IMG/VR virus record: IMGVR_UViG_3300050821_003111
Origin: a virus
Reading direction: 5' to 3' (one strand)
Length of the DNA: 24,824 nucleotides
Shown here one piece after another: positions 5 to 4,661 of the stretch. A program made the position numbers and the translations under genes. Position 1 is the first letter of the stretch. Each line of letters opens with the position of its first letter. The notes below the pieces were generated by a model. It searched no databases. It was not told where the DNA came from and worked only from the letters and a program-made list of their open reading frames with translations.

Positions 5-616
5 TTAATTTATGTAAGTAGGTTTTTTCTGCTTTGTGCGTAAACATAAATCTTCTAGGTACTTTTGTTCTGAGGTAGCTTCATCTTCAGCAAGTACTAC
101 TCCTAATATAGGAATATCTTGCGGATTCCTCTTATAAGATGCTTTATCCAGAATCAGAGATGTAGTTTGTATAGGTAATAAATCATCTAGTCTATTGGCA
201 GAGAATGCTGAGGTGATATATTGTGGATCAGCAAGATAAGGACCTGAAATATGTTCATAACTGGTCCAGATATCATTTCCTATCGAATCTTGGAAATGGC
301 TGTACAGGTCACCTTGCATATCTTCTGGTCTTTCAGGATAGTATCCTCTAGATAAGTAGAATCTGAATATATCAATGTTTTCAAGAGGTTTTCTTACACA
401 TGTATTGATATATCTTTCTACAAAGATATGATCTACTGTAAATACAGCATCATCTGTAGCTTGACCGGCTACCTGAACACTAAGAGAGGAATTAGTCCCT
501 AATAGAAGTTCAGTCTTTACTTTATCGTCGGATAGTTTATAAGCGACTCCCACGAAACTACCTATTTCAACGTCTCTAGTTAGAATATATCTGCAAGCTA
601 GTATAAGTTCATTCAT
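5..616 (-). CDS. hypothetical protein (about 203 aa, MNELILACRYIL...); ATG at 616 with a GGGGA Shine-Dalgarno preferred over the GTG at 661 used by the ORF track
   Basis: Long minus-strand ORF. Internal ATG at 616..614 is preceded by GGGGAAACGAT. No recognisable motifs. Confidence 0.55.
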   Translation of the reverse strand: MNELILACRYILTRDVEIGSFVGVAYKLSDDKVKTELLLGTNSSLSVQVAGQATDDAVFTVDHIFVERYINTCVRKPLENIDIFRFYLSRGYYPERPEDMQGDLYSHFQDSIGNDIWTSYEHISGPYLADPQYITSAFSANRLDDLLPIQTTSLILDKASYKRNPQDIPILGVVLAEDEATSEQKYLEDLCLRTKQKKPTYIN

Positions 617-752
617 ATCGTTTCCCCTGATAACAACCGAAGAATATATAATGAATAGCACTTAATCGATACATCCATCGATGAGGATATCTACTAAATT
701 GTTGGTTTTTGAATCTCTCTCTGAAGTACTCTGCCCACGGTAATAAACTCAT
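609..752 (-). CDS. micro-protein, 47 aa, Trp/Arg/Tyr-rich and basic (MSLLPWAEYFRERFKNQQFSRYPHRWMYRLSAIHYIFFGCYQGKRYE)
   Basis: Hand-translated. ATG 752..750 overlaps the TGA stop (751..749) of the upstream 126-aa gene (ATGA coupling). Composition resembles the other micro-ORFs in the window. Confidence 0.4.
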   Translation of the reverse strand: MSLLPWAEYFRERFKNQQFSRYPHRWMYRLSAIHYIFFGCYQGKRYE

Positions 753-1129
753 TTACTTCTCATGATAACTAGATCTGATATTCTGTAACACATTACCACA
801 TGCTGTTCATAATACGCTAAAGTTAGATCAATTATCTTGTCTATTTGCTCTCTGGTAGCCGCTATTCTGACTGGAATCATTCTTTCTTTGAATAGTGTCT
901 TGTCTGGTGATACCCACTGGCCTTTAACAGGCGTGAGTATTGTTAATCCACCAGATATTTCTCTGATTTTTGCATCCCAGACTCTATGAAATCTAGTTCT
1001 TATAGGGCGACCATTATTTCTGACTGTCGGCACTAGTATTTCATATAATTCTGTAGTAGGTTCACATACTTGAAGGGTCTTCACCTGGATGATCCTCCTT
1101 GAACTTATCTGGAGATATAAATCCAGCAT
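749..1129 (-). CDS. hypothetical protein, 126 aa
   Basis: ATG start at 1129 with a GAGGA Shine-Dalgarno. Overlaps the upstream gene end by 68 nt. Confidence 0.5.
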   Translation of the reverse strand: MLDLYLQISSRRIIQVKTLQVCEPTTELYEILVPTVRNNGRPIRTRFHRVWDAKIREISGGLTILTPVKGQWVSPDKTLFKERMIPVRIAATREQIDKIIDLTLAYYEQHVVMCYRISDLVIMRSK

Positions 1130-1367
1130 ATCGTCCTCGGCCGGTTACAACCCAAGCTATTTTCTCCATATCTTTCAGCTTGGAATCGTGTTTTGATTGA
1201 TAATCAGAACATTCTACTGCGGGGAATTCCAATTCATGACTAGGATACATCGCATTGCAGAAAATCATCTCTTGACCCATTGAAACTCCTTTTACATAGG
1301 TCGAGTTGTTGCAAGTGGCACATAGATTGACAGTTTTACGAGTGCCTTCTTTTACTTTGATTAGCAT
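1062..1367 (-). CDS. hypothetical Cys-containing small protein, 101 aa (CATC..C..C)
   Basis: ATG at 1367 preceded by AAGAAGGA+TTA. Possible Zn-binding cysteines. Confidence 0.5.
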   Translation of the reverse strand: MLIKVKEGTRKTVNLCATCNNSTYVKGVSMGQEMIFCNAMYPSHELEFPAVECSDYQSKHDSKLKDMEKIAWVVTGRGRYAGFISPDKFKEDHPGEDPSSM

Positions 1368-1378
1368 TAATCCTTCTT

Positions 1379-1522
1379 TCAGTATACTAATTTGCGTTTA
1401 TAGTAATAGACCCAGCGTAACCAGCCACTACTACGATATCTAATAGCCCAAAGAGGCCTAACTTTTCTGTAATCACTACCTTGTTTCCAACATTTACGGT
1501 GGCTGGCTTTGTGCATATTCAT
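1379..1522 (-). CDS. micro-protein, 47 aa, Trp/Arg/Tyr-rich and basic (MNMHKASHRKCWKQGSDYRKVRPLWAIRYRSSGWLRWVYYYKRKLVY)
   Basis: Hand-translated ORF starting 7 nt after the peptide deformylase stop and ending 12 nt before the next ATG. Below the ORF-track size cut-off. Confidence 0.4.
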   Translation of the reverse strand: MNMHKASHRKCWKQGSDYRKVRPLWAIRYRSSGWLRWVYYYKRKLVY

Positions 1523-1528
1523 CCTAGC

Positions 1529-3148: not shown

Positions 3149-3666
3149 TAATTTCTATTACTCCAGGAAGAACTTATTTCCCTTTTCTCTAGCCAAATTC
3201 GTATTACTCCATGGCCGAGATGATTGGTATCAGCCGATGAATAAGTTAAACATAACTTATCGTTTTTATCATACCAATTATCATTTTTGTTATACCATAT
3301 TGTTAAACTATCGACAATACCTATTACAGCATTGGACTCATCAGGATCTCCAAAATCCTTCTTCATTAGAGCAAATATCTTCTCTGCGTCGTTTTGCTCG
3401 CCGTTGATAGAAAATGATAGGTATGTCAGATGTTCACGTGTAAATTCAGACCGAACCCAGGCAGATTTGTTATAAATAAGCACTCGGTTTTGCTCGCATA
3501 CTTGAGTACTATCTGTTTCTTTGTAACAGTCTGCATCTAAGTGCTTGTTTGTAAAGGAGATAATATCTTCATCTAGCTGATCCCCTTTTAGAGCGAAGGG
3601 CTTAGACTTGGCCATAATAACAACAGAAGATAATAGTAATACAAAAGCTAAGATCTCATTTGTCAT
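3148..3666 (-). CDS. hypothetical secreted protein, 172 aa, N-terminal signal peptide
   Basis: Hydrophobic N-terminus (ILAFVLLLSSVVIMA). Overlaps the upstream gene by 11 nt. Confidence 0.6.
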   Translation of the reverse strand: MTNEILAFVLLLSSVVIMAKSKPFALKGDQLDEDIISFTNKHLDADCYKETDSTQVCEQNRVLIYNKSAWVRSEFTREHLTYLSFSINGEQNDAEKIFALMKKDFGDPDESNAVIGIVDSLTIWYNKNDNWYDKNDKLCLTYSSADTNHLGHGVIRIWLEKREISSSWSNRN

Positions 3667-4204
3667 GATGTAGATGTTCCTTACTGACTGGCGCTAGACT
3701 ACACAATCTCTTCATTTCTTGTTGTACGTCTGTCAAGGATAGTGGCATATAATTCCAACAATCCACTCCCACATCGAAACTTGGAACTCCTGGAATAGGA
3801 GGAAGTCCACCGTGAGAATGACCATATAACATACCTGCGCCGTGATGTGAATGCGGCCAGACTCTCATAGCGTAATGGCATAGAACAATTCTAAATCCTT
3901 TGTTTTCATACATATAGCATTGAGGAAGGACTTTGAAATATCCTAGTAGTTGCTTTTCTCGGTCGTGATTACCAGGAATTACAAATACCTCTTTACATGC
4001 TATTCTACTACGATATGATCCTAGATTGGCTTGACGCATAGATACGTCGCCCAGATGAAAGAGTCTATCATCAGGCATTACATTATCATTAATATTCTTT
4101 ATTAAGGCAGCATCCATTTCGTGTGTGTTACTGAACGGCCTATTTGTATATTTAATTATATTCAAGTGTCCAAAATGTGTGTCAGATGTGAACCAGTCAG
4201 TCAT
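3656..4204 (-). CDS. calcineurin-like metallophosphoesterase
   Basis: SDTHFGH (DxH), LGDV (GD) and GNHD motifs are in the order diagnostic of the metallophosphoesterase (MPP) superfamily. AAGAGGAAG Shine-Dalgarno. Confidence 0.8.
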   Translation of the reverse strand: MTDWFTSDTHFGHLNIIKYTNRPFSNTHEMDAALIKNINDNVMPDDRLFHLGDVSMRQANLGSYRSRIACKEVFVIPGNHDREKQLLGYFKVLPQCYMYENKGFRIVLCHYAMRVWPHSHHGAGMLYGHSHGGLPPIPGVPSFDVGVDCWNYMPLSLTDVQQEMKRLCSLAPVSKEHLHHDK

Positions 4205-4220
4205 TATACTTCCTCTTGGA

Positions 4221-4352
4221 TTACCAGTCCTTAACTATGAAATGATGCGCAATATACGTGACTAATGAAAAGCATGTAATCACTATAACTAGATCTATAA
4301 GCATAGCTTTCCCTGGATTGTTCCATACCCAGCTGACTATTTTGTCTATCAT
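4221..4352 (-). CDS. micro membrane protein, 43 aa, one TM segment (MIDKIVSWVWNNPGKAMLIDLVIVITCFSLVTYIAHHFIVKDW)
   Basis: Hand-translated. ATG lies 1 nt after the stop of the preceding micro-ORF. Confidence 0.35.
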   Translation of the reverse strand: MIDKIVSWVWNNPGKAMLIDLVIVITCFSLVTYIAHHFIVKDW

Positions 4353-4353
4353 G

Positions 4354-4521
4354 TTAGAACACGCTCCAATTAGATCTTATAAGATGAATTATAATATAAC
4401 AAATTGCCAAGCAAATTCCTATAGCTATAATTCTACATAGTATGAATGCTCCATAGACTATATTTATAGTACCAAGTTTATTGCAGATTCTCATTACTAA
4501 TGTAGGTTTGAATTCAGCCAT
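4354..4521 (-). CDS. micro membrane protein, 55 aa (MAEFKPTLVMRICNKLGTINIVYGAFILCRIIAIGICLAICYIIIHLIRSNWSVF)
   Basis: ATG 4521..4519 overlaps the TAA of the upstream micro-ORF (TAATG coupling). Hydrophobic core. Confidence 0.4.
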   Translation of the reverse strand: MAEFKPTLVMRICNKLGTINIVYGAFILCRIIAIGICLAICYIIIHLIRSNWSVF

Positions 4522-4661
4522 TATTCCCTTTTTCGGTTTAACCAGAACTTATCGTAAGGTGTCTCTGGCATGTCTGGTTTATGTAATCCTCTACTAATCC
4601 AAAATAGACCTCTAAATCTTAGAGCAAAATACTTCCCTCTAAATATATGTATATGACTCAT
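4521..4661 (-). CDS. micro-protein, 46 aa, ALRF-motif family (MSHIHIFRGKYFALRFRGLFWISRGLHKPDMPETPYDKFWLNRKRE)
   Basis: ATG is 2 nt after the TAA of the YgiC-like gene. Shares the KYFALRF / HYYALRF / AFYAMRF motif with the 2861-3148 pair. Confidence 0.4.
   Translation of the reverse strand: MSHIHIFRGKYFALRFRGLFWISRGLHKPDMPETPYDKFWLNRKRE

Follow-up and report, generated by a model that had tools for sequence, protein, structure and literature searches.

In the 24,824-nucleotide (nt) stretch of viral DNA recorded as IMG/VR virus record IMGVR_UViG_3300050821_003111 (hereafter the window), all substantial open reading frames (ORFs) are carried on the minus strand, and the gaps between the larger genes contain short sense-strand ORFs, many of them starting on the stop codon of the preceding gene. 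The question raised by this locus is whether these micro-ORFs are genes or noise. An earlier note, made from the sequence alone, had proposed that nearly every gap after a larger gene holds a micro-ORF, and that roughly 20 micro-proteins are encoded in about 25 kb. The coordinates and translations of the ORFs that it quoted are all correct on the minus strand, and 22 micro-ORFs of 32-55 amino acids (aa) are now counted. It is probable that the gaps hold genuine protein-coding micro-genes, among which a family of mini-proteins, here called MKWW, is dominant.

Coding content of the gaps

All nine of the gaps that exceed 100 nt and lack an RNA gene contain micro-ORFs, which bears out the proposed pattern; the other long gaps contain tRNAs or RNase P RNA. 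The nine RNA-free gaps add up to 3060 bases, of which 85% are covered by sense ORFs of 30 aa or more (n = 23) and 34% by antisense ORFs; in 500 dinucleotide shuffles of the gaps the coverage had a mean of 22% and a maximum of 46%. Fifteen of the 22 micro-ORFs have starts that overlap the preceding stop codon (as ATGA, TTGA or TAATG), and a further four start 1-9 nt past it. Micro-ORF 14812-14970 begins while still within the RNA ligase gene, 11-20 nt before that gene ends, and two micro-ORFs are found farther downstream of the preceding stop (22089-22208, by 15 nt, and 2861-2965, by 36 nt).

Tryptophan makes up 7.0% of micro-ORF residues; the large genes and the off-frame sense ORFs each contain 1.9%, and the antisense ORFs 1.4%. 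Relative to the large genes, Arg (11.8% vs 4.7%) and Tyr (8.2% vs 4.1%) are also enriched, Asp, Glu, Gln and Ala are depleted, and net charge is +5 to +12 in 19 of the 22. Three hydrophobic micro-ORFs (4221-4352, 4354-4521 and 18640-18762) are stop/start coupled, yet are not rich in Trp, Arg or Tyr and have net charges of -1 to +4; by eye, a membrane-like segment is present in these three only. The claim that the micro-proteins are of similar composition does not extend to these three membrane-type ORFs. ORF lengths and Trp contents within expectation for this base composition had been named in advance as the mark of noise; instead, length, coverage and Trp content are far beyond those of shuffled sequence and off-frame ORFs.

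Codon usage in the micro-ORFs resembles that in the large genes. In small counts, the micro-ORFs favour AGA (0.46 vs 0.35), ATA (0.56 vs 0.31) and TTA (0.40 vs 0.23) relative to the large genes. These three codons are decoded by the tRNA-Arg(UCU), tRNA-Ile(UAU) and tRNA-Leu(UAA) of the window (tRNA genes at 2718-2810, 6132-6208 and 7248-7334), and the preference is consistent with translation.

The MKWW arrays

Thirteen of the 22 micro-ORFs align as one family. They are cationic Trp/Arg mini-proteins of about 38 aa, encoded head to tail within operons, and are distributed over three arrays in the window:

10134..10497, minus strand: three MKWW units after the SpoU methylase gene (10387-10482/10497, 10253-10390, 10134-10256)
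16104..16782, minus strand: six MKWW units upstream of the RnlA-like RNA ligase (16684-16782, 16589-16687, 16485-16592, 16369-16485, 16232-16369, 16104-16235)
21979..22490, minus strand: four MKWW units between a 127-aa gene and the NMNAT-Nudix gene (22347-22490, 22224-22337, 22089-22208, 21979-22092)

These units start with M-[KST]-W-W-x-R, followed by a variable stretch, a hydrophobic I/L-x-L, R-K-Y-R and, often, a [KR]-S-I or R-S-F end. The RKYR motif is spelled with different synonymous codons in different copies, which argues for selection on the protein.

Related contigs (designated by L numbers) were fetched via RNA ligase homologues, and the number of MKWW units varies considerably among them:

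Window: 13 units
L009: 8 units
L007: 10 units
L010: 5 units
L013: 2 units
L012: 34-35 units in 21 kb, with runs of 12, 14 and 10

The arrays of the relatives occupy the same three positions, namely the interval separating the second RNA ligase from the Nudix gene, a site upstream of the RnlA-like ligase, and a site that follows the SpoU/Thg1 block. Orthologs of the 10134-10497 and 16104-16782 arrays are found at L009 6257-6686 and L009 18-772, respectively, and same-position counterparts of the 21979-22490 array at L007 4698-5370 and L012 2198-3459. Related phages carry anywhere between 2 and 14 copies at one position, and MKWW units are absent from the more distant L014 (46% ligase identity). 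In the ligase-homologue loci, an iterated hidden Markov model (HMM) placed 65 of 65 units on the coding strand, and none among opposite-strand ORFs.

JGI metagenomes and GTDB genomes were also scanned with a DNA motif, and loci were kept only if confirmed by the HMM (many others being chance matches); this identified arrays in L015, L019, L020, L032, L033, L043, L060 and L065. Some of the arrays found in this way adjoin ClpP, polymerase or clamp-loader genes, so the MKWW family is not limited to one module. A 215 kb 'Chromatiales' contig (L067) proved to be a false lead, its motif lying within a Sel1-repeat protein, and a tandem-motif scan of IMG/VR gave a single match, due to chance, within a giant-virus repeat protein. 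No MKWW units were detected in the ~40 kb examined of the huge phages LR756500/1, which share a major-vault-protein (MVP)-like protein with the window (42-43%).

The signature of the wider family is M-K-W-W-x-R, a variable-length loop, [ILV]-x-[LI]-x-P-R-[RK]-[YW]-x-R and a terminal R-R-S-[FI]. The median length is 38 aa, Trp accounts for 9.9% of residues and Arg for 15.7%, and the mean net charge is +7.6; Cys makes up 1.9% in a set of 144 units. Among 123 non-redundant units, R6 is preserved in 89, the [ILV] position in 107, the [LI] position in 117, R34 in 111 and R61 in 100, and none of these five positions played a role in the rule used to gather the units; the RRSF end is conserved as well. 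Two longer ORFs (L012 12126-12350 and L007 13465-13662) represent a subfamily of ~65 aa, in which an MKWW unit is followed by a conserved C-terminal extension, G.D.LG.D.LLW.LR..Y.

Between successive units of the wider family, the last codons, the stop and the next start conform to the consensus AGGAG.TC.TT[A]TGAAATGGTGG. Accordingly, the AGGAG Shine-Dalgarno (SD) sequence of each following unit lies within the last codons of the unit before it, AGG AGx TCx TTx, which specify the C-terminal R-R-S-F/I, and the stop and the next start share bases as ATGA or TAATG. With the SD embedded in the last codons and the stop and start overlapping, ribosomes could terminate and reinitiate down the array, and translation of each unit would start at ATGAAATGGTGG. 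A frameshifted polyprotein extending across the units was considered and set aside, as termination and reinitiation is simpler given that every unit has its own SD and start. The conserved junction of ~25 nt may also provide the homology for unequal recombination, by which arrays would expand and contract; this would explain the range of 2 to 14 copies at one position.

A single in-frame TGA in L013 raised the possibility that TGA is read as Trp. This was rejected for the window, because code 11 leaves its large genes intact, and TAA, TAG and TGA all serve as stops of units. The L013 gene concerned (8498-9763) is a NAMPT homologue with TGA at a conserved Trp codon (position 8747), in which the first ~70 residues are replaced by an in-frame KWW-type unit (GWKWWFRVYSW...IILGARKII); this arrangement could be a pseudogene, an assembly error or a fusion.

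A comparison of the window and L009 units bears directly on coding. Over 266 codons from seven ortholog pairings, in which one window unit was paired with two L009 units, the pooled synonymous divergence (pS) is 0.72 and the pooled nonsynonymous divergence (pN) 0.34, values that are read as clear purifying selection, not as a precise ratio, given the protein-guided alignment and the saturated pS. Third codon positions hold most of the differences. The earlier note had suggested comparative genomics as a check on frame conservation; six of the ortholog pairs are 50% identical in amino acids when read in the ORF frame (BLOSUM62 sum 645) and 32% identical in each of the alternative frames (sums 100 and 68). 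Off-frame ORFs inside conserved large genes likewise score as conserved, and translated similarity was therefore counted as evidence in gaps only and rejected as sole evidence.

It could be argued that only the junctions matter, with the ORFs acting in cis as translational relays or spacers, or persisting as neutral selfish cassettes, and the peptides being by-products. The junction does show the strongest nucleotide conservation, the upstream stop is overlapped in the 15 of 22 cases given above, and each unit brings its own SD, start and stop, so that its insertion keeps the operon intact. Nevertheless, this explanation is very unlikely, as internal residues ([ILV]-x-[LI]-x-P-R and R61) are kept with synonymous codon variation, pN is well below pS, up to 14 units would be needless for relaying translation, and the downstream genes have SD sequences of their own. 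Gap coverage, composition, the strand-specific recurrence of the family, the low pN and the frame-specific conservation all support the earlier proposal of deliberate coding, and on these sequence-based grounds the micro-ORFs are very likely to be real, translated gene families.

Fold, function and known systems

No significant match to the MKWW units was found in Pfam-A, PHROGs v4 or NCBIfam (the best was phrog_4845, E = 0.054, the rest being single-member noise). A profile search of PDB sequences gave no matches at E <= 10, and Foldseek gave none against PDB. The first protein-database search returned one window unit only (10134-10256; P0001), an HMM scan of 1.84 billion cluster representatives yielded one marginal match, and word-indexed profile searches of 5.8 billion predicted proteins yielded three proteins, namely window unit 10134-10256, one on the same source contig and one marginal match. 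Such scarcity of matches indicates that the family is missing from current protein catalogues. Gene callers on the source contig called three of the 22 micro-ORFs (10134-10256, 18640-18762 and, with a different start, 1379-1522), and the family was not found described in literature searches on 'MKWW', on coupled small ORFs in tandem or on small phage proteins rich in Trp. As none of the comparisons with known families and classes, including those given below, placed it among them, the family is not filed under any known one. The MKWW ORFs are conserved, strand-specific, under purifying selection and outside known families.

Two AlphaFold models share the same beta-beta-alpha topology, with predicted local distance difference test (pLDDT) scores of 71.5 and 69.5. 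The predicted unit is a Trp-anchored beta-hairpin, in which the N-terminal KWW.R strand would pair with the I-x-L strand, followed by an Arg/Lys-rich helix. For function, binding of nucleic acid (RNA or DNA) in the infected cell is the leading suggestion, albeit a tentative one, because the units combine a charge of about +8 and many aromatic residues with no export or membrane signal.

The nearest described phenomenon to the MKWW arrays is found in Bacillus phage G, in which zinc-ribbon mini-proteins have undergone a lineage-specific expansion to about 35; the copies have been suggested to act as transcription factors or as structural proteins that bind DNA (Iyer et al. 2021, PMC7824862). Both cases involve a jumbo phage with dozens of tiny-domain paralogs. 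However, the MKWW family has no conserved Cys/His ligands (no zinc-ribbon or zinc-finger Cys or His column is conserved among the 123 aligned units) and no detectable homology, and it is shorter (~38 aa), encoded in coupled tandem arrays and essentially unannotated.

The nucleic-acid-binding suggestion draws on a likeness to two other groups of short, Arg-rich proteins with aromatic residues. Lambda N is a small RNA-binding protein with an arginine-rich motif, and DUF1127 proteins such as YjiS are short and Arg-rich, contain aromatic residues and are often multi-copy. The MKWW motif and predicted fold nonetheless differ from these, and none of the 13 units has a Pfam match to DUF1127 (PF06568).

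Several points weigh against a reading in which these are protein-coding genes for binding proteins. No sequence or structural relative backs a binding function, and the AlphaFold models, built from 13 paralogs, reach no more than moderate confidence. The protein-guided codon alignment biases pN downward, and pS is saturated. The first four residues served to collect members, which makes their invariance in the wider set partly circular, and the conservation of both ends could partly reflect a nucleotide-level need for initiation or coupling instead of protein function. Translation of the MKWW units is itself deduced from the DNA.

Short ORFs with adjacent Trp codons before larger genes also recall the trpL attenuator leader, which has tandem Trp codons upstream of larger genes. 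Unlike trpL, the MKWW arrays have no terminator/antiterminator structure, include up to 14 units and conserve internal protein motifs. The RNA of the 16104-16782 array folds no better than shuffled sequence (z = 0.07), and no terminators occur within the arrays, the only strong minus-strand terminators being located outside them. At gathering thresholds, Rfam matches only tRNAs and RNase P RNA, and nothing in the arrays; together with the z value and the coding-frame substitutions, this speaks against a structured non-coding RNA repeat.

The composition of the units (~10% Trp, 16% Arg, net charge near +8) is like that of the Trp/Arg cationic antimicrobial peptides (indolicidin, tritrpticin and KW repeats), which are secreted or processed and act on membranes. 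Membrane-active peptides of this type, or precursors of ribosomally synthesized and post-translationally modified peptides (RiPPs), might serve in lysis, exclusion or the killing of competitors. This is highly improbable for the MKWW units, however, as they are encoded in cytoplasmic operons and lack an export signal, a leader and a cleavage motif, the window has no adjacent gene for a maturation enzyme or an exporter, and the arrays are located in early, auxiliary and replication modules rather than among lysis genes. It is the 'core' that is conserved, not a leader, with conservation spanning the whole 38 aa, and the window genes lack RiPP enzyme domains; a radical SAM gene is present in L010, not adjoining any array. 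No hydrophobic stretch of the kind expected of a type I toxin or holin was seen by eye in the MKWW units (no membrane-segment predictor was run).

A conserved N-terminus on a variable body suggests another comparison, with the T4 internal proteins IPI-III, which share a conserved N-terminal capsid-targeting sequence, are encoded at a hypervariable locus, measure 95-194 aa, are cleaved by the prohead protease and occur in few copies per genome. The likeness lies in small basic proteins with a short invariant N-terminus, divergent bodies and locus content that varies between related phages. By this analogy, MKWW.R would be a targeting signal, and the basic bodies would be packaged in the virion, travel with the DNA and act first, upon injection, as DNA counter-ions or in counter-defence. 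Besides the strong basicity and the variable copy number at fixed positions, the many genes for counter-defence and RNA repair around the arrays (NAMPT, NMNAT-Nudix, NADAR, RNA ligases, Thg1) would fit. This role is unlikely, given that neither head nor protease genes are nearby, that no cleavage motif is recognisable past the N-terminus, and that the units are far shorter than the cleaved, low-copy T4 proteins.

The loop that joins W4 to the second strand can be as short as 4 or as long as 27 residues, with the scaffold positions fixed, and this is also what would be expected of a diversified library of mini-binders, in which a constant hairpin-helix scaffold presents a hypervariable loop and tail, and each paralog, shaped by a birth-death arms race, neutralises a different host factor. 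The fast change in copy number between relatives points in the same direction, as does an ortholog identity of ~50%, versus 72% for the neighbouring ligase. The ortholog pairs are, however, under overall purifying, not positive, selection, there is no known target, and the extreme basicity fits nucleic-acid binders better than specific protein binders, all of which makes such a library a rather doubtful proposition.

Other micro-ORFs and genomic setting

The micro-ORFs outside the MKWW arrays are the following:

609..752, minus strand: 47-aa basic micro-ORF (MSLLPWAEYFRERF...), ATGA overlap with the upstream stop
1379..1522, minus strand: 47-aa micro-ORF, net charge +12, beginning 6 nt past the peptide deformylase stop
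2861..2965, minus strand: 34 aa, 'ASY..W..W...YYALRF' family, 36 nt past the previous ORF
3002..3148, minus strand: 48 aa, 'ALRF' family, TAATG overlap with the upstream gene
4221..4352, minus strand: 43-aa hydrophobic micro-ORF, 1-nt spacer
4354..4521, minus strand: 55-aa hydrophobic micro-ORF with a single transmembrane-like segment, TAATG overlap
4521..4661, minus strand: 46-aa basic micro-ORF with 'YFALRF', beginning 2 nt past the stop of the glutathionylspermidine-synthase-like gene
14812..14970, minus strand: basic micro-ORF of 52 aa that overlaps the RNA ligase gene at its end
18640..18762, minus strand: 40 aa, hydrophobic anchor at the N-terminus, overlapping its upstream neighbour as ATGA and its downstream neighbour as GTGA

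The 609-752 ORF overlaps the start of the downstream gene (616) by 8 nt (ATGAATGA), and has relatives that are 54-57% identical at L010 20937-21077 and in L015. Its conservation is its own, since the L015 relative does not adjoin the downstream gene. A partial relative of 1379-1522 is also found in L015 (54% over 26 aa). The 2861-2965 and 3002-3148 ORFs constitute a second family, with the pattern ASY..W..WF...YYALRFWYRLTG.VP and relatives at L007 18954-19085 and, as a tandem pair, in L015. Membership of 4521-4661 in this 'ALRF' family is uncertain, as the family HMM missed it; it and 14812-14970 have just an 'LRF' motif in common, and neither was recovered by HMM. No relatives of the three hydrophobic ORFs were found. 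The 22 micro-ORFs cover at least four unrelated families, and although deliberate coding is supported, the 'genomic strategy' of the earlier note is not one phenomenon.

The window has a GC content of 34-44%, five tRNA genes and a compact bacterial-type RNase P RNA, and matches parts of two metagenome contigs at 100% identity (ENA ERZ27253508 k141_1621833, 33.9 kb, and the Logan assembly of SRR7098092). The Pfam domains assigned to called genes include NAMPT, RnlA-type RNA ligase, Thg1, an MVP-like 806-aa protein, SpoU methylase, NADAR, glutathionylspermidine synthase, metallophosphoesterase, SSB and peptide deformylase. A search of GenBank phages in near mode found no close phage, with tRNA matches only. 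The vault-like protein is 42-43% identical to proteins of the huge-phage assemblies LR756500-3, and the RNA ligase belongs to a tight clade of relatives (54-72% identity), several of them on contigs of 211-219 kb; from these three observations, the window is a fragment of an uncultured jumbo phage. In IMG/VR, ligase relatives are merely 25% identical and the Nudix protein has no relative, and an exact lookup of the Nudix protein returned no record.

The region 9511-24162 is a dense island of NAD-salvage, counter-defence and RNA-repair genes, containing NAMPT and the NMNAT-Nudix gene, NADAR, two RNA ligases, Thg1, SpoU and the vault-protein-like 806-aa gene; relatives of the island add PNKP, PspA and TPM phosphatase. 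A strong GC-rich hairpin terminator of 12 bp lies between the vault-like and SpoU genes (11058-11085, minus strand), and may be bidirectional, as it fits the terminator pattern on both strands.

The phage-encoded RNase P RNA (8663-8932, minus strand) is a compact (~250-270 nt) bacterial RNA of type A, kept in three relatives (L007 16466-16714, L012 15886-16140 and L015 7694-7943) with scores of 106-130 bits versus a gathering score of 100; no mention of phage RNase P RNA came up in the top ten results of a literature search. Its 5' part is overlapped by a 70-aa ORF (8891-9103, minus strand; called as 63 aa on the source contig), which may or may not code and is followed by a strong terminator at 9120-9089. 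The 93-nt tRNA-Ile(TAT) predicted by ARAGORN at 2718-2810 (minus strand) is below the gathering score of the Rfam tRNA model, and may have an intron or an unusual structure.

What is new here, as read from the sequences, is a widespread, unannotated micro-gene family with smaller companion families and a putative function. The 'intergenic' space of large phages can be packed with functional micro-genes, and a family with 10-35 copies per ~20 kb, in a jumbo-phage clade widespread in soil and freshwater, is missing from protein catalogues. One junction sequence serves as C-terminal codons, ribosome-binding site and stop/start overlap, and the MKWW family offers a compact natural mini-protein scaffold for studies of structure and binding. 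In a more speculative and, on balance, unlikely extension, the mini-proteins (38 aa, beta-beta-alpha, metal-free) would combine hypervariable loops with a fixed scaffold anchored by Trp, and their arrays would be an evolvable repertoire of mini-binders in a clade of ~215 kb environmental jumbo phages, generated by unequal recombination at the junctions and aimed at host defence or RNA targets. If so, a previously invisible gene class would fill up to ~1/5 of some regions.

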